Below, piece by piece: positions 12,652-53,280 of a DNA stretch of 64,000 bases (the first letter of the stretch is position 1; each line of letters opens with the position of its first letter). The translations under genes and the position numbers were made by a program. Under the pieces are notes generated by a model, which was given only the letters and a program-made list of their open reading frames with translations, did no database searches and was not told the origin of the DNA. The stretch is from Escherichia phage vB_vPM_PD114. The stretch is taken from the sequence record MH675927.1; one strand, given 5' to 3'.

Positions 12652-13464
12652 TTATTTAGTCAAATGATCTTCTATCATTTTTATGAAAGCAGGATTGCTA
12701 AAAGCATCTGCGGCCTTTTCTCGATAAACAAAGACTCCTCTATCTTCGTAAAGAAGAGTTTCTTCGTAATTAATTCCTGGGTTAACAACAATCATTTTTG
12801 TACCCATACTAAGTGCAGGGAATAATTCCCAATTAAAATTGATAACTTGGTTTGAACATCCCACTACAACAACCAAATCTTGCATGGTCAAAGTATCAAA
12901 AATATGATACATATCCGTGTAAAGTGGAGCAGCTTCCCCAAAGAAAATTACATTAGGTTTTACATAATGGTAGTCATCTACATCTATAGCTTGATAACCA
13001 ACATCTTTTACAATTGTAGGTTGTCCAGCTTTTCTTTGAAAAGTAATTTCAGGAAGAAAACCGTGCACATGTAGCACTTCTTCCCTATCTACTCCTGCTC
13101 GTTCAAGGAGGTCATCCACGTTAGTAGTAATGTTAATAATTCGTTCTGGGCCATATTTTTTGAACCATTCTCCAATCTGAAGATGTGCTGGATTCGGGTC
13201 AACTTTCTCTAATTCCACGCGACGTTTATTGTAAAAGTCGTGAGTTTTACGGTAGAGGTTATATCCTTCTGCATCTAAACCACCCATAGCATCAAGAACA
13301 CCTTGTTCTTGCTGATAACCGTCACGGAAGTTGAAAATGTCACAGACCTCAAAAAGATCATAAGAAGACCATAACGCCTTCCCTGAAGAAGTATCTGTTC
13401 TAAAAGCTGAGATACCGCTATCCACAGATAGTCCTGCACCACTGACAAAAATTACTCTTCGCAT
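12652..13464 (-). CDS. SIR2-like (sirtuin fold) NAD-binding protein
   Basis: GAGLSVDSGISAFR glycine-rich NAD loop near N-terminus, VHG and VIFFGE motifs as in sirtuins; no Zn-ribbon Cys pairs; SD aagagga. Confidence 0.6.
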   Translation of the reverse strand: MRRVIFVSGAGLSVDSGISAFRTDTSSGKALWSSYDLFEVCDIFNFRDGYQQEQGVLDAMGGLDAEGYNLYRKTHDFYNKRRVELEKVDPNPAHLQIGEWFKKYGPERIINITTNVDDLLERAGVDREEVLHVHGFLPEITFQRKAGQPTIVKDVGYQAIDVDDYHYVKPNVIFFGEAAPLYTDMYHIFDTLTMQDLVVVVGCSNQVINFNWELFPALSMGTKMIVVNPGINYEETLLYEDRGVFVYREKAADAFSNPAFIKMIEDHLTK

Positions 13465-14796: not shown

Positions 14797-15786
14797 TCAT
14801 TCCTCCATACACTTAAGAATATGTGCAATGACAGGTATAGTCCAACCATTACCTAACATCTTATATGCTTGTGTGTTACTACTCACTTTAAAGTAATCAT
14901 CTGGAACACCTTGTAAGCGGCAACACTCTTTAACCGTTAACTTTCTATAATGCACACCTTCACTCAATTTTTCAAAGGCATCCAGATATCTTCCAGGTGG
15001 AATGTAAGCTAACAGTACGTCTTTAGGCACAGTCGTGAGGCAACGAGTTTTTTCACTGTCCTGAACTTCCAAGCAATGTACCAAACGATCAGCTTTAGAT
15101 GTACTACGTTTGCCATTTTCATTAATTCTACGCCCATATATTGCTGCCGGATAAAAAGCTAGTTGTCTGCGGCTCTTTTCAAAATACTGTTCTATATTAC
15201 CACCTTTGGCATAATTTGCATCTATGCAATAAGCCTTATCCCTGTCTACAATACTATCATCTTCAATGATATCTTGCAACACTTCATTGGTAATATCCCA
15301 AGGTTTTATTTCCCAATTGCACCAGTATAAACGTTGTCTATTCTGTGCAGTGAAATCTGCGGAGTTAATGAATACGGGATCAACACCTAAGTAACTTGTG
15401 ATCACGTTTTCCCACTCCACCTTCATCTTAACGTTTTCAAGCATGAACTTAACATTAGGGTTAAACTTTTTAATATGTTCAAGAATTTCAACATATTCAA
15501 AGAACAGTTTAGATCGCGGATCTTGAAAGTTCAAACCCTTACCAGAAGAAGAGAAGCCTTGGCACGGGCTACCGCCTAACAAAATATCAATTTCTCCCCA
15601 CGGGATATCCCATTCTCTCCATTTTGTAACATCACCTAATTGAATAATATCTGGAAAATTGGCTTGGCTTTCAGCTATGGCAAATTTGTCCAATTCTGAG
15701 GCATAATACTTATCTACTTCAATACCTGCACTTTTTAGTGCAAGCATTCCTCCTGACATACCATCAAAAAGACTTAAAACTTTCAT
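14797..15786 (-). CDS. DNA cytosine-5 methyltransferase
   Basis: motif I FDGMSGG, motif IV GGSPCQGFS, motif VI ENV in canonical order. Confidence 0.8.
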   Translation of the reverse strand: MKVLSLFDGMSGGMLALKSAGIEVDKYYASELDKFAIAESQANFPDIIQLGDVTKWREWDIPWGEIDILLGGSPCQGFSSSGKGLNFQDPRSKLFFEYVEILEHIKKFNPNVKFMLENVKMKVEWENVITSYLGVDPVFINSADFTAQNRQRLYWCNWEIKPWDITNEVLQDIIEDDSIVDRDKAYCIDANYAKGGNIEQYFEKSRRQLAFYPAAIYGRRINENGKRSTSKADRLVHCLEVQDSEKTRCLTTVPKDVLLAYIPPGRYLDAFEKLSEGVHYRKLTVKECCRLQGVPDDYFKVSSNTQAYKMLGNGWTIPVIAHILKCMEE

Positions 15787-40944: not shown

Positions 40945-41667
40945 TTAAGCAATGATTGCTGCGATATTAGGTTTAACAAAGGTAGATGGCTTCATAATTT
41001 TACCTTTGTCATCAAAGAATACGTATACCTTTTGAACTTCGTTATATACAGCATGTACTCCAGTATAAGAACCTTCTGCACGATCTTTGCTTCGCATCTC
41101 GATAGCATCACACTCTTTTTCAAGAGCTTCAACAATATCCTTAGTTTCCCAAATAGCCAGGAGTTGCTTCTTGGTAGGATACTTGGACTCATTGCTATTC
41201 AACACTTCACGCATAACCTTCTTCTCGTTATAAACAGAACGCACCAAAGTATCTCGTGCCATACGTGTAAGTGTAAGAGACATTAGGGCAAATTGCAAGT
41301 CATTTTCTACCATTTTATCAAATTCAATGATAACATCGTAAATGTTTTCTGCCAGAACATCTCCTGTCGGCATTTCCAGGGCTTTATCAACACCTTCTTT
41401 ACCAAAGAACATAAATGCCAGGTAGGATGCTACCACAAAAATATCTGCTGCTGCATCAAGTAATTCAACGTGATCATTTTCCTGTGCTGCTGCTTGGAAC
41501 TCTTTTAGTTCTTCTCGTACAAAAGAAAGTTGAGCTTCAAACATCTCTTGAGTAAATTCTGGGGTTACGCCACCACGTGCCTTAGCATTCCAAGCAACAA
41601 TTTGATCGGCAGCTTTGATAAAGAAGCTATTGTCCACTTTTACTTGTTTGAAAAAATTCTCGATCAT
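40945..41667 (-). CDS. hypothetical protein (possible nucleotide pyrophosphohydrolase)
   Basis: track ORF; SD aaggagaa; function is a weak guess from helical EEL..E..DA composition. Confidence 0.5.
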   Translation of the reverse strand: MIENFFKQVKVDNSFFIKAADQIVAWNAKARGGVTPEFTQEMFEAQLSFVREELKEFQAAAQENDHVELLDAAADIFVVASYLAFMFFGKEGVDKALEMPTGDVLAENIYDVIIEFDKMVENDLQFALMSLTLTRMARDTLVRSVYNEKKVMREVLNSNESKYPTKKQLLAIWETKDIVEALEKECDAIEMRSKDRAEGSYTGVHAVYNEVQKVYVFFDDKGKIMKPSTFVKPNIAAIIA

Positions 41668-41865: not shown

Positions 41866-42981
41866 TTACTCTGCTGGTTCCCAAGTACCTGGAATCATCT
41901 TACGTACACGTACCCCAACAGGCTTGGTAGGAATACCTTCGTCTGAAAATTCTTCGTACTCAATTTCAACAAATTGACCAATAAGTGTCAAAGCATTTTC
42001 TTCTTTACGATAGTTAATGGTTTCATCTGAATCCTTACGCATCAGGAATTCGACTACTTTACCATTTTCCATCTCGCCTGTCAATACCCCGTCACCATTT
42101 TTATCACGCTTTGCACTTACCACCTTAACTTCAAGCGTCTGCCGTGGTTTACGTTTAATAACATCATAAGAACGTTTATCAAACTCGTAAACACCTTGTG
42201 CATTACGATACACCACACCTTCCGCTTTCTCACGCAGAGCTTTTGCATAGAATTCATCAAACTGCTCTTGGTTTTCAATGTACTCTGTATGTACTACACA
42301 AATAAGTTCGTCTAAACCTTTATCTTGAACAACTTCTTTTAGAGCAGCCAAAACTTCAACCCTCTTCTCAAATGGTACAGATGGCACAGGAACATCATAT
42401 ACATAGTATTTAAGAAGCGGAGTGTTAGCATTATGCTTTTTCCACGCACTATTAATTTGTTGAAGGCTAAGAACACCCAAACCAGCAAAAACTTCACCGT
42501 CAAGAGGATGACCAACTACTTCTTTAATGAAGGTTGGAATTTCTTTCCAGTGAGGTGGAAGTTTATATACTTCCCCAGCTTTAGATAAGCATTCACCTTG
42601 CATGTTAATCATTGAACGTAGACCATTCAATTTATACTGTGCATAACCTGGAAACAAAACACGATCAGCATAATCTTTATAATCCTGACATTTCATGGGT
42701 GTGGAAGGAACATGGTTTTCAGCTTCCTCTTTTGTTTTATAATACCCATTCTTAAGTTGCTTTGTCCATTTGGCAAGAGCTTCTATTTCAGCTTGTTCTT
42801 CTGCTGTTGTTTCATTTGAGCGACCAATATTTTTAGGTTCTGCTGTATAAGATTTGCTAGTAATCTTTCCACCTAATTGACCATGAGTAACAGTTACAAC
42901 ACTACCTTCGGTATAGACTGACCACTGTTTAATTTTACCTGTAGAAGTTTTACCATACAATGTAGGATTAGTTTGTTTCAT
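41866..42981 (-). CDS. ATP-dependent DNA ligase (nucleotidyltransferase superfamily)
   Basis: motif I YKLNG (KxDG-type lysine), size about 370 aa; track ORF trimmed to ATG after tggagg. Confidence 0.6.
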   Translation of the reverse strand: MKQTNPTLYGKTSTGKIKQWSVYTEGSVVTVTHGQLGGKITSKSYTAEPKNIGRSNETTAEEQAEIEALAKWTKQLKNGYYKTKEEAENHVPSTPMKCQDYKDYADRVLFPGYAQYKLNGLRSMINMQGECLSKAGEVYKLPPHWKEIPTFIKEVVGHPLDGEVFAGLGVLSLQQINSAWKKHNANTPLLKYYVYDVPVPSVPFEKRVEVLAALKEVVQDKGLDELICVVHTEYIENQEQFDEFYAKALREKAEGVVYRNAQGVYEFDKRSYDVIKRKPRQTLEVKVVSAKRDKNGDGVLTGEMENGKVVEFLMRKDSDETINYRKEENALTLIGQFVEIEYEEFSDEGIPTKPVGVRVRKMIPGTWEPAE

Positions 42982-43156
42982 CTTTAACCTCCAGTTGCGA
43001 AAGAACCCATTTAGCCATTTCAATTTCACCGTGTAGTCTGCCTAGTTCATAGGCATCATCAATATTACCACCAGTGTAATCATCCACCATAAAGTAAGGA
43101 TCTTCGCTACTGTTAGGTGCGTTTGCAATTCTCGTTAGTTCTTCAATAAATGTCAT
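42968..43156 (-). CDS. hypothetical protein
   Basis: track ORF trimmed to ATG. Confidence 0.45.
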   Translation of the reverse strand: MTFIEELTRIANAPNSSEDPYFMVDDYTGGNIDDAYELGRLHGEIEMAKWVLSQLEVKDETN

Positions 43157-43722: not shown

Positions 43723-44127
43723 TTATTGTAGCTTAAGTGAACTGCGAAGACGTTTCTCTTGCTGATCACGAATATGTTGTGGAACCTCATGAATTGAGTC
43801 GTTACCGTGCCTATTTTCAACAACTAAAGAGATAACTTGATAACCAAACTCTTCAGCAAGAGTAAAATAAGGTTTAAGTTCTTTCTCTGTGGTTGAAGTG
43901 TTAGAGACAATAATCTTTTTAATATTAGATGCCATAGCATCACGAACAATACTCTGACACCATGCGTGTGCTTTACCTACATTTTCTGGCTTCCAATCGT
44001 AAACACCACTTTCTGTGTAATGATATTGATCTGCCTCACAGATAGGCCAATAACCTTCAGAAATAATTTCTGCTACTGTAGATTTACCTGCACCTGAAAC
44101 ACCACGTAAAATGATAAGTTGTTTCAT
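43723..44127 (-). CDS. P-loop polynucleotide kinase-like protein
   Basis: N-terminus MKQLIILRGVSGAGKST resembles T4 Pnk kinase domain start; SD tggagg. Confidence 0.6.
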   Translation of the reverse strand: MKQLIILRGVSGAGKSTVAEIISEGYWPICEADQYHYTESGVYDWKPENVGKAHAWCQSIVRDAMASNIKKIIVSNTSTTEKELKPYFTLAEEFGYQVISLVVENRHGNDSIHEVPQHIRDQQEKRLRSSLKLQ

Positions 44128-45060
44128 TTAGCCTCCAAAGAAGTTTTCTATTTCTTTACGTCGCTCTTGTGGATCTAAAGCAGCCCATTGAGTCTTGGTA
44201 AAGTTGTTTCGAAGCCATTCTAGCAAAGTATAATATTCTTCGTCAACAATTTGTTTAGCATTTTTTGGGTTGTCCCAAATCATATCCCACTTCTTATTGC
44301 CACCACGCATAAGGAATTTCTTAGCAAGATAGTATGGTGACTTAATCTTTAACAGCAAGTTAAACGGATAGTTTGTTTCACGAACTACAAACCCTTCGTG
44401 CTTACATTGTTTAGACATTTCAACAACATCTGAAAATTTAATCATCTGATAAACTTCAGGACGTTTAAATTTTGTAACAGATGCAATCCCATCGAGCACA
44501 CCTTCAGGTAGCATGAAACTTGTCCCATCATCATTTTGAATTCTTGCTCCGATTAAGTATGCACCTGGTTCTTCTTCAACAATATGTGGATCAGAAGGAT
44601 CACAGATTTCAAAAAGGAAAGTTGCTTTTGCACTTTCTGTCCACTTAATGAAATATTCTATGTCATCACACTCGGAAACAATATGGTTCTTGGCAAGAGT
44701 TGCAAAATCTGACTCTAGGCTCCCTGTTGTTGATACAATAAGTTGCCCTTTGTACACACCTACAGATGCCATAAAACCGTTTACTTTACGGACAGCATCT
44801 ACAAGTTGGTCTGCTGGAAGATCTGTACCATTCTCAAAACGATTAAAGATTTTAGTAAAAGGCCAAATAACAACATTGTCTTCTGAGTCAACAACCAACC
44901 CACGACAATCTAGAAGTCGTTTGTCAACGTTCCACAAGTTATCCCAGAATACATTGTTTTTGTATTTAAGTACAGCAAGACCAGCATACTCTCCAGATTT
45001 AACTTCTTTTTTATGCACTAAACCTTTTGCAATCAGGTCATCACAATTGAACTTAGCCAC
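44128..45060 (-). CDS. RNA ligase (Rnl1-like nucleotidyltransferase)
   Basis: motif I KVNGFMASV followed by Gly-rich segment as in T4 Rnl1; GTG start after aaggag. Confidence 0.55.
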   Translation of the reverse strand: MAKFNCDDLIAKGLVHKKEVKSGEYAGLAVLKYKNNVFWDNLWNVDKRLLDCRGLVVDSEDNVVIWPFTKIFNRFENGTDLPADQLVDAVRKVNGFMASVGVYKGQLIVSTTGSLESDFATLAKNHIVSECDDIEYFIKWTESAKATFLFEICDPSDPHIVEEEPGAYLIGARIQNDDGTSFMLPEGVLDGIASVTKFKRPEVYQMIKFSDVVEMSKQCKHEGFVVRETNYPFNLLLKIKSPYYLAKKFLMRGGNKKWDMIWDNPKNAKQIVDEEYYTLLEWLRNNFTKTQWAALDPQERRKEIENFFGG

Positions 45061-45061
45061 C

Positions 45062-45613
45062 TTAATCTCCTTTGATTATCTTATGATGGTCTACAACAAC
45101 AATATCACGCTTATCCATAATAGAGATGATTTCGTCAAAATGCAAGATTTTTCCGTGTGCGTCCCAACCAACGTCCAACATTTTCCCATACAAATGATCA
45201 GGGAATGATCCGTGAGAGTGCCCGTGTAGCATGATTGATCCATGCCCTTGTTTATTCCAGGAAGCCATAGGGTAATGACTTAAGACGAAGAACAGTTTCT
45301 GATATTTCACTTCGTCATAATACACCACCTCGCCATATTCTGCAAGCACTTCTCGGTGTTTGCTGTAATCATGGTTCCCAACACAGTAAGTGATATCACC
45401 TTGAAGACGTGAAGCAATTTTACGGGTATCTTCTTCAGTCCCGAAACAGAAGTCGCCCAAGTGCCACATCTTGACACCAGGACTCGTAGCACATTTATTC
45501 CATGCTTCAATCAGTGCTTCTGTCATATGATCCATATCTTCCCACGGGCGATATTCAGGAGCAAACTCTCGAATACGTTTGTGCATAAAATGCAAATCAC
45601 TTGTAATAAACAT
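45062..45613 (-). CDS. calcineurin-like metallophosphoesterase
   Basis: DLHF, GDFCFG and GNHD metal-binding motifs. Confidence 0.7.
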   Translation of the reverse strand: MFITSDLHFMHKRIREFAPEYRPWEDMDHMTEALIEAWNKCATSPGVKMWHLGDFCFGTEEDTRKIASRLQGDITYCVGNHDYSKHREVLAEYGEVVYYDEVKYQKLFFVLSHYPMASWNKQGHGSIMLHGHSHGSFPDHLYGKMLDVGWDAHGKILHFDEIISIMDKRDIVVVDHHKIIKGD

Positions 45614-45972
45614 TAGTATAATCCCTCGCTGAATAGTTCACTGTCGTGACCATTTCTTTCATAGTTAATTTGTTTGGCGTTATCTGCAATGATATAAGCA
45701 TCTTTGCGACTCCACCAATTATAATACTGATCAATAAACCCTTGATTATCAGGTAAGCAAAACAGCTTATCAATCAATCCTGCATCTTTTAAAACATTAA
45801 GTTGTGCAGATAGTACAGGATTTGCATGCCTAACACAAAGAATAATCAATTCTTCGCCATTGTTGAGAATATACTTATTCGCAGCGCATACTATAACACG
45901 TTGAGCATAGTGATCCTCACCAATCCAAGTAAGAGGTTGGTAACAAATATCATGTTGATTAGTAGCGCACAT
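45613..45972 (-). CDS. hypothetical protein
   Basis: track ORF 45613..45975 trimmed by one codon to ATG. Confidence 0.5.
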   Translation of the reverse strand: MCATNQHDICYQPLTWIGEDHYAQRVIVCAANKYILNNGEELIILCVRHANPVLSAQLNVLKDAGLIDKLFCLPDNQGFIDQYYNWWSRKDAYIIADNAKQINYERNGHDSELFSEGLY

Positions 45973-46121
45973 CAATTTTCTCCGTACTCTTTTAATCTAT
46001 CAGCGAAAAAACTGTAATCAGGAAGTAAAAGATCATTACTCGTATCGTTACAGTTTTCTTCATCTTTATAGATAAAACGCCCTTCATCCTCTTCTTGCTC
46101 TGACCAAACTGAGTAATGCAT
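45972..46121 (-). CDS. small acidic protein (49 aa)
   Basis: ORF filling gap; stop overlaps downstream start. Confidence 0.3.
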   Translation of the reverse strand: MHYSVWSEQEEDEGRFIYKDEENCNDTSNDLLLPDYSFFADRLKEYGEN

Positions 46122-46130
46122 AATACCTAC

Positions 46131-46472
46131 TTAATAGTTAACACGTTTAATTTCAACACCATAGGATGAAATAAAATTTTCCTTAGCTAACATATATTTA
46201 CCGGCAGCAGAAGGATTTGATGTATGAACATAGATAGTTTTAAGAGCATCCCATTCACCAGCGTACAACATACATTCTACGTCTAAGAACGCATGATATC
46301 CTTCTTGATCTTCTCCAAGATCATTATCGAAGTGTATCTCTGAGATATTATTGAAATTATCTTCATCTGAAACAAAAGATAACCAATCCTCAAAAGATTT
46401 TAACCAAATGGCATCCTCATAACCATAATCTTTAGGATCTCTTAAATCGTCTAACCAAAGAATTTTAGCCAC
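46131..46472 (-). CDS. hypothetical protein
   Basis: track ORF 46131..46505 trimmed to GTG after aggaagggg. Confidence 0.5.
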   Translation of the reverse strand: MAKILWLDDLRDPKDYGYEDAIWLKSFEDWLSFVSDEDNFNNISEIHFDNDLGEDQEGYHAFLDVECMLYAGEWDALKTIYVHTSNPSAAGKYMLAKENFISSYGVEIKRVNY

Positions 46473-48506: not shown

Positions 48507-49400
48507 ATGAAAGTTAGTATTCTGCATGGTGTTGACTGTTATGTTACTGATGTAGACGTTAAAGTGTTTACATTCTCTGGTGGAGAACAACATGTTCAAT
48601 TAGATACGAATCTATCAGGTTTCAATCATGCTACAGACAGAATCTTACTCACTTTAGAAGTAAGATCTGCTAAAGACTTGATGACTTTGGTTATGACTAA
48701 GAATGCATTGGACAATATGCTATATCATAAACCATATTGTGTTGATTTACTCATGTTGTATGTGCCGTATGCACGACAAGACAGAGTGTGTGAGCCTGGG
48801 GAAGCATTCGGAGTTAAAGCATTTGCTTCTATAATTAATTCATTAAATTTCTCACGTGTTATCGTTGCTGATCCGCATAGTGATGTTACTCCAGCAGTGT
48901 TTGACAGACTCTGTGTAATACCTCAAGAGGAGATTGCTTACGAAACTTTAAAGTGGAAGTTACGTATGGAGAATTTTGCTCTTGTTAGCCCTGATGGTGG
49001 TGCTCTTAAGAAAATATTTAAATTATCTAAGAAAATGTCTTTAGATGTGTTCTGTGCAGAGAAGGTTAGAGATACCGCAACAGGTGCTATTGTTCGTACA
49101 GACATTTCTGTACAGGATTTCAATAAGCGTAACCTGATGATCGTAGATGATATCTGTGATGGTGGTAGAACTTTTATTGAATTGGCTAAAGTGCTACGTG
49201 CTCGTAACGCAGGTAAGATTGAGTTATATGTTACACACGGTATCTTCTCTAAAGGTCTTAAAGAGTTGAGTGAACACTTTGACTGCATTCATTCTCTTAA
49301 TGTGTGGGAAGATAACATCCAAGAAGATTCCGGTGTTCTTGTTAAGAATCAGTCAGATTTGCAACAACAAATTGTATCTCCATACGTGTGGAATTTTTAA
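48507..49400 (+). CDS. ribose-phosphate pyrophosphokinase-like enzyme (Prs homolog; Adps-type candidate)
   Basis: YARQDR motif and PRPP-binding loop LMIVDDICDGGRT; SD taaggagataaaga. Confidence 0.75.
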   Translation: MKVSILHGVDCYVTDVDVKVFTFSGGEQHVQLDTNLSGFNHATDRILLTLEVRSAKDLMTLVMTKNALDNMLYHKPYCVDLLMLYVPYARQDRVCEPGEAFGVKAFASIINSLNFSRVIVADPHSDVTPAVFDRLCVIPQEEIAYETLKWKLRMENFALVSPDGGALKKIFKLSKKMSLDVFCAEKVRDTATGAIVRTDISVQDFNKRNLMIVDDICDGGRTFIELAKVLRARNAGKIELYVTHGIFSKGLKELSEHFDCIHSLNVWEDNIQEDSGVLVKNQSDLQQQIVSPYVWNF

Positions 49401-49471: not shown

Positions 49472-51205
49472 ATGAATATTTTTGCACCTTTTGCTACTGA
49501 TTGGTACAAACCTGGTCACAAGCAGATGTACAATCAAAATACAAAACTCATTTTCTCTAATTTAACTCCTCGTAATGATAAAAACTTTGCACACTATGCA
49601 GATCGTGAAGCACGTGGTGTGATTGTTTTAGGTATTCGTCGAGCAGTCACTGATGCTCTTGTAACTATGTGGGATAGCTTCTTTAAAATGTCTCGTAGTG
49701 CAGCAGTAAATAAATTTTATCGTATGTCTAAAAATGCATTAGGTGCTTCTGCTCCTTCTGCTGAATGTTGGGGAGAATTGCACGATTTAGGTTATCTTCC
49801 GCTGGAAGTTCGATCTCTGCCAGAAGGTGTTTTGTGTCCTATTGGTGTTCCTGTGTTTACTGTGCATAATACTTTAGAAAAATTCTTTTGGTTAACTAAC
49901 TATGTGGAAACACTGTTGTCAGATGAAACTTGGAAGACAATGACTAATGCCACAGCAGCTTTTCAGTATAAGCGTATCGCTATGGCATATGCGATGGCAA
50001 CGTGTGATAATATTGATCACGTTAACTTCCAGTGTCATGACTTTAGCCTACGTGGTTTAAGTAATATCGAAGATGGTTATAAGAGTGGTATCGCTCACTT
50101 GGCATCGTTCACAGGAACAGATAATATTCTGGCTATTGAAACTGTGCATGACTATTATGGTATTGATTATGATCAGTTTGTTGCAGGTTCTATTCCGGCA
50201 ACAGAACATTCAGTAGCAACGACTAACATTGGAGCTATTGTTGAAGATCTGAAGAAACATTTCCCACATCTTAAAGATGATGTAGATGGGCTTCGTTATG
50301 TAGCAGAAAAAGAGTTTCTTCGTCGTTATATCGAAGAAATTGTTCCAGAAGGTTTTTGTTCATATGTAGCAGACTCTTATGACTATTGGGCTGTATTGAC
50401 TCGCATTCTGGTAGAATTGAAAGATTCCATTATGTCACGAAATGGTCGTCTTGTTATTCGTCCAGATTCAGGAGATCCGGTTAAAGTTGTTGCAGGATAC
50501 AATGTTGAATCTTTTGATAACTATGAAGACCTCTTAAATAATGGTATTGCGACAGCCACTGAAGTAGTTCATTTGGCTGATGTTAATAAGTATTACAATG
50601 TTCTTCAGGATTGCAGTGTTGCTGACTGTATTGATGAAACTTATGAGATTCCTTATTGTGAAGCAGTAGGTTCTATTCAAATCCTTTGGGAAGTGTTTGG
50701 TGGTACTATCAACCGAAAAGGCTACAAGGTTCTTGATCAGCATATCGGTATGATTTATGGTGATTCTATTACTGTTGAACGAGAACACGAGATCTTACGC
50801 CGACTGAAGAAGAAAGGTTTTGCAGCTTCCAATATTGTATTTGGTGTTGGTAGTTATACTTATCAGTTCAATACACGAGATACTTTTGGTTTTGCTGTTA
50901 AAGCAACAGGTAGTATTATCGGTGAACACGAAATTTTGGTAAGTAAGGAGCCTAAAACTGATCCTGGTAAACGCTCTGCAAAAGGTTTTATTAAGGTTGT
51001 TAAGGATACCAATGGTAATCTGTCTCTTGTAGATAATCTTTCTTTTAAAGATATCCAGGATGAAGACAATGAGTTACAAGTTATCTTCAAGGATGGTAAG
51101 GTTATTACACCACAAGTAGAAGGCCGTGATGAAACATTCACTGATATCCGCAACCGTGTTGACGTAGAGGTTCTTCGTACTATGGGAACCATCCAGGTTG
51201 ACTAA
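49472..51205 (+). CDS. nicotinamide phosphoribosyltransferase family enzyme (Nampt homolog; Namat-type candidate)
   Basis: Nampt-family blocks HDFSLRG, LVIRPDSGDP, GMIYGDSIT, KTDPGKRSAKG; 577 aa with N-terminal extension. Confidence 0.8.
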   Translation: MNIFAPFATDWYKPGHKQMYNQNTKLIFSNLTPRNDKNFAHYADREARGVIVLGIRRAVTDALVTMWDSFFKMSRSAAVNKFYRMSKNALGASAPSAECWGELHDLGYLPLEVRSLPEGVLCPIGVPVFTVHNTLEKFFWLTNYVETLLSDETWKTMTNATAAFQYKRIAMAYAMATCDNIDHVNFQCHDFSLRGLSNIEDGYKSGIAHLASFTGTDNILAIETVHDYYGIDYDQFVAGSIPATEHSVATTNIGAIVEDLKKHFPHLKDDVDGLRYVAEKEFLRRYIEEIVPEGFCSYVADSYDYWAVLTRILVELKDSIMSRNGRLVIRPDSGDPVKVVAGYNVESFDNYEDLLNNGIATATEVVHLADVNKYYNVLQDCSVADCIDETYEIPYCEAVGSIQILWEVFGGTINRKGYKVLDQHIGMIYGDSITVEREHEILRRLKKKGFAASNIVFGVGSYTYQFNTRDTFGFAVKATGSIIGEHEILVSKEPKTDPGKRSAKGFIKVVKDTNGNLSLVDNLSFKDIQDEDNELQVIFKDGKVITPQVEGRDETFTDIRNRVDVEVLRTMGTIQVD

Positions 51206-52845: not shown

Positions 52846-53226
52846 ATGCCAAGCAATGATTATATGCGGGAATACATGAAAACTCGGTGGCAGAAGCGAA
52901 GAGCTTCCGCAATCCTCCAGCTTGGAGGTAAATGTGTTAATTGTGGGTCTGTAGATGACTTGGAATTTGATCATAAAGATTCAAGCGAGAAGAAGTTTTA
53001 TATTAGTCGAATGAGTTCATGCTCTGAGGCTAAATGGCAGGAAGAACTTGCCAAATGTCAACTTTTGTGCCATGACTGTCACATGAAGAAGACAAGAATA
53101 TCCCAAGACATGGGAAACAGAATTAGAACAACGGTGTGTGTTTGCGGGGCAGTATTTTATAGTACAAAGGCTTATGCTGGACATACACGGTGGTGTAAAG
53201 AGTATGCATCGTTAGCCAAGCGGTAA
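52846..53226 (+). CDS. HNH endonuclease (free-standing, inside tRNA cluster)
   Basis: CVNCGS..DHKD..CHDCH HNH motifs; track ORF 52771..53226 begins inside tRNA-Ser, trimmed to ATG after gaggagg; 3' end overlaps tRNA-Lys by about 21 nt. Confidence 0.65.
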   Translation: MPSNDYMREYMKTRWQKRRASAILQLGGKCVNCGSVDDLEFDHKDSSEKKFYISRMSSCSEAKWQEELAKCQLLCHDCHMKKTRISQDMGNRIRTTVCVCGAVFYSTKAYAGHTRWCKEYASLAKR

Positions 53227-53280
53227 GGCACTTGACTTTTAATCAAGGGAGCGAAGGTTCGAATCCTTCACGATGTACCA
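53206..53280 (+). tRNA. tRNA-Lys (TTT)
   Basis: acceptor GCATCGT/ACGATGT (G1-U72), anticodon stem CTTGA/TCAAG loop CTTTTAA, T-arm GAAGGTTCGAATCCTTC, CCA. Confidence 0.7.

Follow-up and report, generated by a model that had tools for sequence, protein, structure and literature searches.

A predicted three-gene RNA repair cassette with an Rnl1-type ligase in Escherichia phage vB_vPM_PD114

Three adjacent genes of Escherichia phage vB_vPM_PD114 probably form the core of a predicted phage RNA repair ("healing and sealing") cassette, consisting of a metallophosphoesterase, an Rnl1-type RNA ligase and a P-loop kinase. They lie within a stretch of 64,000 nucleotides from sequence record MH675927.1, which we call the window. 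The feature is real and coherent, and it has been computationally predicted before, in rV5-like phages (Iyer et al. 2022, PMC9503650); near-identical phages and GenBank relatives are already annotated with these functions. The value of the cassette is an experimental opportunity and not a new discovery from the window. If the reading is true, this widespread trio would give phages a second way, with an architecture of its own, to counter RNA-cutting immunity, the first being the Pnkp and Rnl1 of phage T4. Defences that target tRNA, such as PrrC, RloC, PARIS, retrons and Cas13, are common, and to our knowledge phage counter-measures to them have hardly been tested beyond phage-encoded tRNAs. 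The genes considered here are the following.

12652..13464, minus strand: sirtuin (SIR2) gene, possible NAD+-dependent partner (Pfam SIR2 2.4e-19; phrog_2162 6.6e-99)
40945..41667, minus strand: MazG-like nucleotide pyrophosphohydrolase (Pfam PRA-PH 3.2e-7; phrog_671 6.4e-28)
43723..44127, minus strand: P-loop kinase of the polynucleotide-kinase clade, predicted 5'-OH RNA kinase (134 aa, ATG start)
44128..45060, minus strand: Rnl1-family ATP-dependent RNA ligase, predicted sealing enzyme (310 aa, GTG start)
45062..45613, minus strand: binuclear (calcineurin-like) metallophosphoesterase, predicted 2',3'-cyclic phosphodiesterase / 3'-phosphatase (183 aa, ATG start)
45613..45972, minus strand: PF26092 (T4_Y16D) protein (phrog_839 3e-46)
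45972..46121, minus strand: 49-aa ORF flanked by the PF26092 and cREC genes (phrog_18323 2.4e-34)
46131..46472, minus strand: cREC (cyclic-phosphate-processing receiver-like) protein, predicted accessory cyclic-phosphate opener (Pfam cREC_REC PF20274 3e-14)

The coordinates and strand that the earlier note gave for three consecutive genes were correct to the base in the ORF check, and the ORFs, each a gene of its own, stand back to back, with the phosphoesterase first, then the ligase and then the kinase. The junctions in the trio are 0 nt and 1 nt with a Shine-Dalgarno sequence before each gene, and the kinase starts 0 nt past the ligase stop with GGAGG upstream. From the 49-aa ORF through the kinase, spacing is 0–1 nt or the genes overlap by 1 nt: the 49-aa ORF meets the next gene in a TGATG overlap, and the PF26092 gene meets the phosphoesterase start in a TAATG overlap indicative of translational coupling. 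The likely start of the cREC gene is the GTG at 46472, preceded by GGAAGGGGG. This operon-like packing supports the repair reading. A promoter scan was uninformative (32 promoter-like sites vs 29 expected), and a terminator scan inside the cassette returned nothing terminator-like on the coding (minus) strand. NCBIfam did not usefully name any of the cassette proteins. In the homology searches that had been proposed for the three proteins, the kinase and the ligase scored above their Pfam cut-offs, and the phosphoesterase was recognized by its PHROG family, a PDB match and its motifs. Chance ORFs are ruled out because the E-values are this small and the genes are conserved in hundreds of phages.

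The middle gene had been described as an Rnl1-like ligase with a KVNG motif I, and the searches agree. The protein matches Pfam RNA_lig_T4_1 (PF09511; E=5.5e-15, 56.3 bits, cut-off 28.3) and phrog_562 (3.5e-69); a single-sequence search of the PDB gave no match and a profile was needed, with which T4 Rnl1 (2c5u) was found at 4.8e-23. Motif I reads R-K92-V-N-G95 with K92 as nucleophile, and R53, K70, K92, G95, E151, E222, G223, K238 and K240 are invariant in 18 diverse homologues. Motifs I, III, IV and V (K92/G95, E151, E222-G223 and K238/K240) correspond to K99/G102, E159, E227-G228 and K240/K242 of T4 Rnl1. Among the Rnl1-specific N-terminal elements, R53, K70 and F72 (the last kept in at least 90% of homologue sequences) correspond to T4 R54, K75 and F77, which makes three of four positions kept when T4 K119 is counted. 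Wang, Ho & Shuman reportedly found in 2003 that R54, K75, F77, K99, G102, E159, E227, G228, K240 and K242 are essential in T4 Rnl1. K119, another essential position of T4 Rnl1, is replaced by T112, a residue that is itself at least 90% conserved in an S-T-T-G stretch with invariant T111 and G113.

The AF2 model of the ligase (pLDDT 91.9) was compared with solved structures by Foldseek, and the best matches were Trl1-LIG and T4 Rnl1 (E about 1e-13 to 2e-11), followed by Rnl3 (about 5e-10 to 6e-7), Rnl2 (about 6e-7 and weaker) and Rnl5 (about 3e-5 and weaker). Judged from the model, the overall fold is nearest to the Rnl1 type and not to Rnl2, Rnl3, Rnl5 or DNA ligases. The family profile and motifs point to a true member of the Rnl1 family, predicted to seal 3'-OH/5'-phosphate RNA ends in an ATP-dependent manner. 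Its C-terminus differs from that of T4 Rnl1: the sequence alignment ends at T4 residue 265, and the T4-type tRNA-specificity domain (T4 residues about 255–374, about 120 aa) is absent from both alignment and model, where a helical module of only about 65 aa (residues 242–307) is found. The tRNA-specificity domain is replaced by a module of half the size, and the substrate need not be tRNA.

The kinase matches Pfam AAA_33 above its cut-off (E=1.1e-9), phrog_2071 (1e-57) and phrog_505, "polynucleotide kinase" (6e-9). The claim that its N-terminus resembles T4 Pnk failed at the level of the single sequence, which gave a non-significant E=0.23-0.76 against T4 Pnk in the PDB, and held with the family profile, for which T4 Pnk (1ltq) was the top PDB match at 1.1e-15. 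Capnocytophaga Pnkp1 (4xrp, 1.3e-14), the tRNA(Sec) kinase PSTK (2.9e-13) and the kinase domain of C. thermocellum Pnkp (4gp6, 5.7e-10) followed, so that the best solved relatives of the profile all act on RNA. An adenylate-kinase P-loop scored 1.4e-4, and APS kinases, gluconokinase/glucokinase and uridine kinase scored 5e-4 or weaker. By profile comparison, the closest characterized relatives are polynucleotide kinases and not nucleoside/nucleotide kinases. In the P-loop G9-K15 (Walker A, GxxxxGK[ST]), G9, G12, G14 and K15 are invariant, as is D33, which aligns with the general base D35 of T4 Pnk. Two further T4 Pnk residues, R38 and D85, are said to be essential from mutagenesis in the Shuman laboratory, and neither is kept: the acceptor-binding R38 is H36 in the kinase and H/W/Q/F/R across the proteobacterial-phage clade, and D85 aligns with the Asn of V-S-N-T.

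The phosphoesterase scores 22.2 bits against Pfam Metallophos_2, below the cut-off of 27. Its identity as a metallophosphoesterase, which had been called from the sequence as calcineurin-like, was confirmed on other grounds: a match to phrog_547 (7e-55), a match to PDB 1xm7 (Aquifex aq_1665, function unknown; 2.5e-6 with the single sequence, 7e-20 with the profile), and the complete metal-binding signature DxH, GD, GNH[DE], H, GHxH. The corresponding residues D6, H8, G53-D54, G79-N80-H81, H113, G131-H132 and H134 are invariant in seven homologues of 33–48% identity. In the PDB profile search aq_1665 was the sole significant match: Rv0805 and GpdQ-type enzymes stayed at E>0.01, neither lambda phosphatase nor the Pnkp phosphatase was found, and no specific relationship to a characterized 2',3'-cyclic phosphodiesterase or 3'-phosphatase was detected. 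Pfam gave no HAD match. The predicted role in 3' end healing is the least certain assignment of the three, and it is made by context only.

The context in question is the linkage of the three genes across phages. We sampled 80 ligase loci from viral metagenomes in IMG/VR, dereplicated to 42 ligase lineages. A kinase is present in 72 and a phosphoesterase in 70 of the 80 loci, and ligase, kinase and phosphoesterase occur together within 2.5 kb in 27 of the 42 lineages, in five gene orders. The trio was found in Vequintavirus, Pakpunavirus, Ralstonia RSP15, Vibrio Thalassavirus, Acinetobacter Saclayvirus and a Limnohabitans phage, and the linkage thus persists in unrelated phage families despite rearrangement. 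Among 50,697 GenBank phage records, about 750 carry the ligase and about 620 the kinase, with near-identical counts by genus (Escherichia 198/197, Pseudomonas 177/173, Klebsiella 36/36, Acinetobacter 24/24).

Domain fusions give further support. Lactobacillus phage 3-521 encodes kinase, Metallophos and RNA_lig_T4_1 domains in a single 781-aa protein, and cyanobacteria carry the same three domains fused in proteins of about 710–790 aa; in Leptolyngbya, the fused protein is encoded 1.6 kb from an RtcB gene. The metallophosphoesterase part of these fusions belongs to another subfamily, PF00149, and went undetected by the cassette-family profile. Outside phages, homologues occur in cyanobacteria and Cardiobacteriaceae, and in the latter a kinase-ligase fusion is followed by a gene of the same phosphoesterase family as in the phage cassette.

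We infer the following substrates and order of steps. Metal-independent ribonucleases (anticodon nucleases, HEPN or Cas13-type effectors, toxins) would cut RNA, most plausibly in tRNA anticodon loops, and leave 2',3'-cyclic phosphate and 5'-OH ends. The metallophosphoesterase, possibly with help from cREC, would open the cyclic phosphate and take it off, leaving a 3'-OH, and the P-loop kinase, with K15 in its P-loop and D33 as general base, would place a phosphate from an NTP on the 5'-OH. The Rnl1-type ligase would then adenylylate itself on K92, transfer AMP to the 5'-phosphate and seal the break. In vivo such a pathway may serve counter-defence, and anticodon nucleases are candidate targets. 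A search of the literature returned no activity or phenotype result for any member of the ligase/kinase/phosphoesterase set.

A close precedent is T4 Pnkp and Rnl1, the counter to PrrC, which likewise provides the 5' kinase, 3' end-healing and ATP-dependent sealing activities predicted here. The earlier note had read the three proteins as a split analogue of that pair, and catalytic residues, linkage, fusions and nearest solved relatives agree with it: the ligase belongs to the same family as T4 Rnl1, and the kinase domain of T4 Pnk is the nearest solved relative of the kinase. The architecture is distinct. The T4 kinase is fused to a HAD-type (DxDxT) phosphatase, whereas the cassette has a stand-alone kinase and an unrelated binuclear metallophosphoesterase; the ligase module is shorter, T4 Rnl1 K119 and T4 Pnk R38 and D85 are not conserved, and the repair genes abut, whereas T4 pnkp and rnl1 are unlinked.

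The bacterial systems C. thermocellum Pnkp/Hen1 and Capnocytophaga Pnkp1-Rnl-Hen1 also combine a kinase, a binuclear metallophosphoesterase and a ligase. The kinases of both were matched, and the fused relatives of the cassette proteins share the Pnkp domain order kinase-phosphoesterase-ligase. Membership in Pnkp/Hen1 was nevertheless rejected. The ligase here is of the Rnl1 type, and neither the sequence matches nor the fold matches listed included the ligase domain of C. thermocellum Pnkp; the phosphoesterase is not of the lambda-phosphatase type; the genes are separate and differently ordered; and no Hen1-like protein or methyltransferase was matched among the cassette genes and their immediate neighbours (40.9–48.1 kb).

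The cassette is larger than three genes, since cREC, the MazG-like gene and the distant sirtuin belong to a published neighbourhood. Iyer, Burroughs, Anantharaman & Aravind (2022) predicted a type-2, sirtuin-centred phage RNA-repair neighbourhood in Escherichia phage V5 and Proteus phage Mydo (PMC9503650), and its T4-like tRNA ligase, cREC, nucleotide kinase, MazG-type pyrophosphatase, calcineurin-like phosphoesterase and sirtuin are all in the window. The cyclic-phosphate function of cREC is a published prediction only (PMC7824862, PMC9503650). The MazG-like gene lies downstream of the trio, and such genes occur in 13 of the 80 ligase loci. The arrangement departs from the published one in several ways. 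The cREC gene lies two genes upstream of the phosphoesterase gene, separated from it by the PF26092 gene and the 49-aa ORF, and the sirtuin, which is the defining centre of the published system, sits 30 kb from the other genes. The phosphoesterase, "occasional" in that paper (PMC9503650), is a near-constant partner here and in most ligase lineages. In Vequintavirus Bas55, a cREC homologue directly follows the RNA ligase, a sirtuin 48% identical to the one here is two genes after the ligase, and a MazG-like homologue comes after the sirtuin.

The PF26092 protein (assigned because homologues of the 45613..45972 product carry PF26092) was considered as a core fourth component for its translational coupling to the phosphoesterase. 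Its AF2 model (pLDDT 91) matched no PDB fold, the family occurs in 2 of the 80 ligase loci, and elsewhere its homologues lie among replication genes, away from the ligase. It is probably a passenger and not a core component. The 49-aa ORF is conserved in close relatives only.

The same proteins could alternatively perform yeast/plant tRNA-splicing chemistry, as Iyer et al. (2022) proposed (PMC9503650), which we consider unlikely. The cREC protein and/or the phosphoesterase would leave a 2'-phosphate/3'-OH end, the ligase would seal it, and the sirtuin would remove the junction 2'-phosphate with NAD+, as Tpt1/KptA does. By analogy, the sirtuin would then be an RNA 2'-phosphotransferase and cREC a new cyclic phosphodiesterase, and it is doubtful that cassette, cREC and sirtuin together form such an NAD+-dependent repair system, a bacterial-virus counterpart of Trl1/Tpt1 working through a 2'-phosphate junction. 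The neighbourhood published for rV5 and Mydo, with its sirtuin, cREC and MazG-like genes all in the window, speaks for this chemistry, and the sirtuin lies 0.3–2.2 kb from the ligase in PVP-SE1-, 4MG- and rV5-type relatives; Streptomyces phage Faust has a sirtuin-like gene about 3.7 kb downstream of ligase and kinase. The ligase model also fits the fungal Trl1-LIG, which requires a 2'-phosphate end and relies on Tpt1, equally well as T4 Rnl1, and Trl1 too joins ligase, kinase and cyclic phosphodiesterase activities, although a 2H enzyme supplies its cyclic phosphodiesterase activity and its kinase and ligase are fused. Set against this are the 30 kb between sirtuin and cassette in the present phage and the loci as a whole, in which a sirtuin within 10 kb (11/80) and cREC (10/80) are far rarer than the phosphoesterase. 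No sirtuin is known as an RNA 2'-phosphotransferase, and we know of no demonstration of that activity for the sirtuin fold or of cyclic phosphodiesterase activity for the cREC fold. A binuclear metallophosphoesterase could in principle remove the phosphate fully, as PMC2190708 reports for C. thermocellum Pnkp. A PRS-like/NAMPT-like gene pair beside the cassette was considered as support for NAD+-dependent repair and set aside, being better explained as NARP1 NAD+-rebuilding counter-defence.

Returning to complete healing by the trio, its weakest member invites a further alternative, in which kinase and ligase alone repair RNA and the phosphoesterase is a general phage enzyme (e.g., a nuclease, a nucleotidase or a phosphodiesterase of cyclic-nucleotide signals) that just lies nearby, with 3' healing left to cREC or to a host enzyme, or not required. 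The phosphoesterase family is about twice as widespread in GenBank phage records as the ligase (1405 vs 754); it extends to Staphylococcus, Listeria, Bacillus and Enterococcus phages and mycobacteriophage L5, mostly without ligase and kinase, and in Staphylococcus and Bacillus phages it lacks them as neighbours. In Bacillus phage Troll, it sits between a RecA-like gene and exonuclease genes, and in Staphylococcus phage PM36 it is annotated as "DNA ligase-associated". The sub-threshold Pfam score, a sole close solved relative without a known function and the other subfamily in the fused proteins are in line with this as well. Against this reading, no more than 2.5 kb separate the phosphoesterase from the ligase in 34 of the 42 lineages (Proteobacteria-infecting phages), through five gene orders, and the same family directly follows the kinase-ligase fusion of Cardiobacteriaceae. 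Independent fusions also place some metallophosphoesterase between kinase and ligase, which speaks for such an activity being required by the pathway, and we consider a bystander phosphoesterase quite improbable.

It is very improbable that the cassette serves routine phage RNA processing (maturation or circularization of phage RNA, or repair after the phage's own RNases) or that the ligase acts mainly without catalysis, for instance in attaching tail fibres, as reported for T4 gp63: the name that PHROG gives to its family ("RNA ligase and tail fiber protein attachment catalyst"), the specificity left open by the short C-terminal module and the intolerance of the N-terminal catalytic domain of T4 rnlA to transposon insertion in a laboratory host (bioRxiv 10.1101/2025.11.20.689424), a hint of functions besides defence evasion, are outweighed by the invariance of all ligase catalytic residues in diverse homologues, by the tight linkage or fusion to kinase and phosphoesterase, which makes sense only for end-healing chemistry, and by the closeness of a cellular fused homologue to RtcB, also a repair ligase.

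For the preferred reading, RNA end repair by the trio, the surroundings of the cassette are also relevant. It adjoins 15 tRNA genes and the PRS-like/NAMPT-like pair, and the region may be a counter-defence island because the tRNA cluster and the NARP1-like NAD+-rebuilding pair lie together with the repair genes. The phage tRNA-Lys has the anticodon loop of the host's and would by inference still be open to cleavage, in which case repair and tRNA supply would not duplicate each other. Defence by retron Eco2, which acts by nicking tRNA acceptor stems, remains effective against Stephanstirmvirinae and Vequintavirinae, and the cassette is thus no general antidote to tRNA cleavage. Close relatives of the phage are present in the BASEL collection, with E. 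coli K-12 as their host.

We found that three consecutive open reading frames on the minus strand coincide exactly, in position and order, with the kinase, RNA ligase and phosphoesterase genes of the earlier note:

43723-44127, minus strand, kinase, 134 aa
44128-45060, minus strand, RNA ligase, 310 aa, GTG start
45062-45613, minus strand, phosphoesterase, 183 aa

The reading of this trio as a split RNA repair kit, analogous to T4 Pnkp and Rnl1, is supported by sequence, structure prediction and comparative genomics, as far as these reach. The mechanism would probably be a T4-like healing and sealing reaction carried out by three separate predicted enzymes; its least secure parts are the step assigned to the phosphoesterase and the question of which RNA is targeted. 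The gene junctions are operon-like. A single nucleotide separates the phosphoesterase stop codon from the ligase GTG, which is preceded by AGGAG, and the kinase ATG, preceded by GGAGG, immediately follows the ligase stop codon. Upstream of the trio, two genes share a single base with their neighbors (TGATG and TAATG).

The ligase matches Pfam RNA_lig_T4_1 (5.5e-15, well over the cut-off) and phrog_562 (3.5e-69). Among 18 aligned homologs, with identity down to 23%, R53, K70, K92, G95, E151, E222, G223, K238, and K240 are invariant and F72 is kept in at least 90%; K92 and G95 belong to the KVNG motif I proposed from the sequence alone, which is present as stated. A profile of this alignment matches T4 Rnl1 (2c5u) at E = 4.8e-23 and pairs the conserved residues with T4 R54, K75, F77, K99, G102, E159, E227, G228, K240, and K242, a set that is reportedly essential in the T4 enzyme. 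The exception is T4 K119, which pairs with T112 (conserved in at least 90% of homologs). The top structural matches of the AlphaFold model (pLDDT 91.9, pTM 0.88) are fungal Trl1-LIG (2.4e-13) and T4 Rnl1 (about 1e-12), while Rnl3, Rnl2, Rnl5, and DNA ligases rank lower. Trl1-LIG and T4 Rnl1 represent the two branches within the Rnl1 family that join tRNA. At its C terminus the model has a helical module some 65 residues long (242-307), as compared to about 120 residues for the C-terminal domain of T4 Rnl1, which is said to confer tRNA specificity; the substrate choice of T4 does not simply carry over.

The kinase matches Pfam AAA_33 (1.1e-9), phrog_2071 (1e-57), and the polynucleotide-kinase family phrog_505 (6e-9). 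Its supposed resemblance to T4 Pnk was not recovered with the single sequence (E = 0.23-0.76), but emerged with a profile built from eight homologs (1.1e-15). The same profile matches Capnocytophaga Pnkp1 (1.3e-14), the tRNA(Sec) kinase PSTK (2.9e-13), and the kinase domain of C. thermocellum Pnkp (5.7e-10), and these similarities set the protein firmly among the RNA-end kinases. The P-loop and D33, the counterpart of the T4 general base D35, are invariant. In contrast, T4 R38 is replaced by H36 and T4 D85 by Asn, so that the acceptor site is unlike that of T4.

The phosphoesterase scores 22.2 bits against Pfam Metallophos_2, under the cut-off of 27, and matches phrog_547 at 7e-55. All of its binuclear-metal motifs are invariant (D6-x-H8, G53-D54, G79-N80-H81, H113, and G131-H132-x-H134). 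Its sole significant solved relative in the profile search is Aquifex aq_1665 (PDB 1xm7; 2.5e-6 with the single sequence, 7e-20 with the profile), a protein of unknown function, and this search detected neither lambda phosphatase nor the Pnkp phosphatase domain; it is thus the context of the gene that points to a 3'-healing role.

The trio lies among further genes, which we list with the more distant sirtuin gene and a tRNA gene:

12652-13464, minus strand, sirtuin (SIR2; Pfam 2.4e-19, phrog_2162 6.6e-99)
40945-41667, MazG-like pyrophosphohydrolase, downstream of the trio
41866-43029, minus strand, ATP-dependent DNA ligase (phrog_114, 6e-76), 0.7 kb downstream of the kinase gene
45613-45972, PF26092 ('T4_Y16D') gene, upstream of the phosphoesterase gene
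46131-46472, cREC gene (Pfam PF20274, 3e-14), upstream of the phosphoesterase gene
48507-49400, plus strand, PRS-like gene, divergent from the cassette block
49472-51205, plus strand, NAMPT-like gene, divergent from the cassette block
53206-53280, plus strand, tRNA-Lys(UUU)

A 49-aa ORF accompanies the PF26092 and cREC genes upstream, and three small genes with no assigned function, one of them 'hol-like chemotaxis' in PHROG, lie downstream of the trio. Phage muut carries an HNH endonuclease gene, absent from the window, between its DNA ligase gene and its MazG gene.

The linkage of the three genes extends well beyond close relatives. The trio occurs within about 3 kb in Vequintavirus Bas55, a Pakpunavirus, Ralstonia phage RSP15, Vibrio Thalassavirus Achelous, Acinetobacter phiAbaA1, and Limnohabitans DC31, which are otherwise unrelated to one another. 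GenBank counts of ligase and kinase by genus are nearly equal (Escherichia 198/197, Pseudomonas 177/173, Klebsiella 36/36, Acinetobacter 24/24). Among 80 IMG/VR loci found through the ligase, a kinase lies within 10 kb in 72 and a phosphoesterase in 70; NAMPT-like (43), PRS-like (35), and DNA ligase (31) genes are rarer partners, and MazG (13), sirtuin (11), cREC (10), and PF26092 (2) the rarest. After dereplication at 60% ligase identity, 31 of 42 lineages have the kinase within 2.5 kb of the ligase, 34 the phosphoesterase, and 27 both. With P for phosphoesterase, L for ligase, K for kinase, and a prime for the opposite strand, the complete trio appears in five orders: P-L-K (11 lineages), K-L-P (8), L-K-P (5), P-K-L (2), and P'-K'-L (1). 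This linkage outlives rearrangement, which argues for selection on co-expression. PF26092 was rejected as a core component, since it is rare, lies away from the ligase elsewhere, and, with a confident model, gave no fold match in the PDB.

Related domains are also found fused. Lactobacillus phage 3-521 carries AAA_33, Metallophos, and RNA_lig_T4_1 in a single 781-aa protein, and Leptolyngbyaceae cyanobacteria combine the same domains in proteins about 710-790 aa long. One of these, a 712-aa kinase-metallophosphoesterase-Rnl1-type ligase fusion in Leptolyngbya sp. PCC 7375 (L109:6768-8906), has an RtcB gene 1.6 kb downstream. Cardiobacteriaceae encode a kinase-ligase fusion of about 500 aa (493 aa in a MAG, L092:7446-9576), with a phosphoesterase of the window's family directly after it. 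No Hen1 was seen in the five neighboring ORFs scanned around the cellular fused relatives. The metallophosphoesterase of the three-domain fusions is of another subfamily (PF00149), which the profile of the window's family did not detect. The latter family is itself wide, with 1405 phage records as compared to 754 for the ligase, including phages of Staphylococcus, Listeria, Bacillus, and Enterococcus and mycobacteriophage L5. No ligase or kinase was found near its homolog in Staphylococcus phage PM36 or Bacillus phage Troll, and in Troll its neighbors are a RecA-like gene on one side and exonuclease genes on the other. It thus seems that some metallophosphoesterase is needed for the pathway, but that the window's particular family is not dedicated to this pathway.

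A different, NAD+-dependent repair was proposed by Iyer et al. (PMC9503650), in which the sirtuin would take a 2'-phosphate off the junction, much as Tpt1 does. The ligase fold is equally close to the 2'-phosphate-dependent Trl1-LIG and to T4 Rnl1, and PVP-SE1-, 4MG-, and rV5-type relatives carry a sirtuin 0.3-2.2 kb from the ligase; in Streptomyces phage Faust, a sirtuin-like gene is again present, about 3.7 kb downstream of the ligase. The window sirtuin is 48% identical to that of Bas55, itself two genes after an RNA ligase. However, 30 kb separate sirtuin and cassette in the window phage, where the sirtuin is surrounded by genes of unknown function and a nearby C-5 cytosine DNA methylase gene (14797-15786), and most ligase lineages have no sirtuin within the 10-kb neighborhood. 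Moreover, the adjacent PRS-like/NAMPT-like pair, which begins about 400 nt past the end of the minus-strand block, is laid out as in NARP1 (Adps/Namat), the likeness being one of two-gene layout; NARP1 in Bas63 rebuilds NAD+ against NAD+-depleting defences (bioRxiv 10.1101/2024.02.11.579819). Given this distance, scarcity, and layout, we regard sirtuin-centred repair as an improbable, minority rival.

For T4-like healing and sealing, the putative link to anticodon nucleases is a reasonable one; the literature searched held no experiment on the cassette. Stephanstirmvirinae and Vequintavirinae remain susceptible to retron Eco2, a defence that nicks tRNA in the acceptor stem (PMC12916289), so the cassette is no universal antidote. 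Fifteen tRNA genes lie on the strand opposite to the cassette, on the same side as the PRS-like/NAMPT-like pair. The phage tRNA-Lys(UUU) shares with E. coli tRNA-Lys an identical 7-nt anticodon loop and four of five anticodon-stem pairs, while the rest is only about 80% identical. It is thus unlike the phage tRNAs with mutated loops that van den Berg and colleagues discussed in 2023 (PMC10264068). Since the host-type loop is kept, this tRNA may not escape nucleases that recognize the anticodon loop and may remain cleavable, in which case repair and tRNA supply would be complementary rather than redundant.

The region is 98.7% identical to Enterobacteria phage ECGD1, and many Justusliebigvirus/Phapecoctavirus (Stephanstirmvirinae) coliphages with genomes of about 146-150 kb match it at 96-98% identity. 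Several of these records carry names for the three genes: the ECGD1 record already names a 'putative RNA ligase/RNA repair' and a 'putative phosphoesterase', the BASEL phage JohannJBalmer is annotated 'RNA ligase | putative phosphoesterase | polynucleotide kinase', and Iyer, Burroughs, Anantharaman and Aravind (2022) described the same gene set for phages 'prototyped by Escherichia phage V5 and Proteus phage Mydo'. The novelty of the cassette is therefore low, and its interest is as a widespread, experimentally accessible candidate counter-defence. Four GenBank records labelled 'Campylobacter phage' with host C. jejuni (MG065639, MG065645, MG065656, and MG065689) are 97.5% identical to the coliphage region over 3.1 kb and are probably mislabelled or contaminant assemblies.
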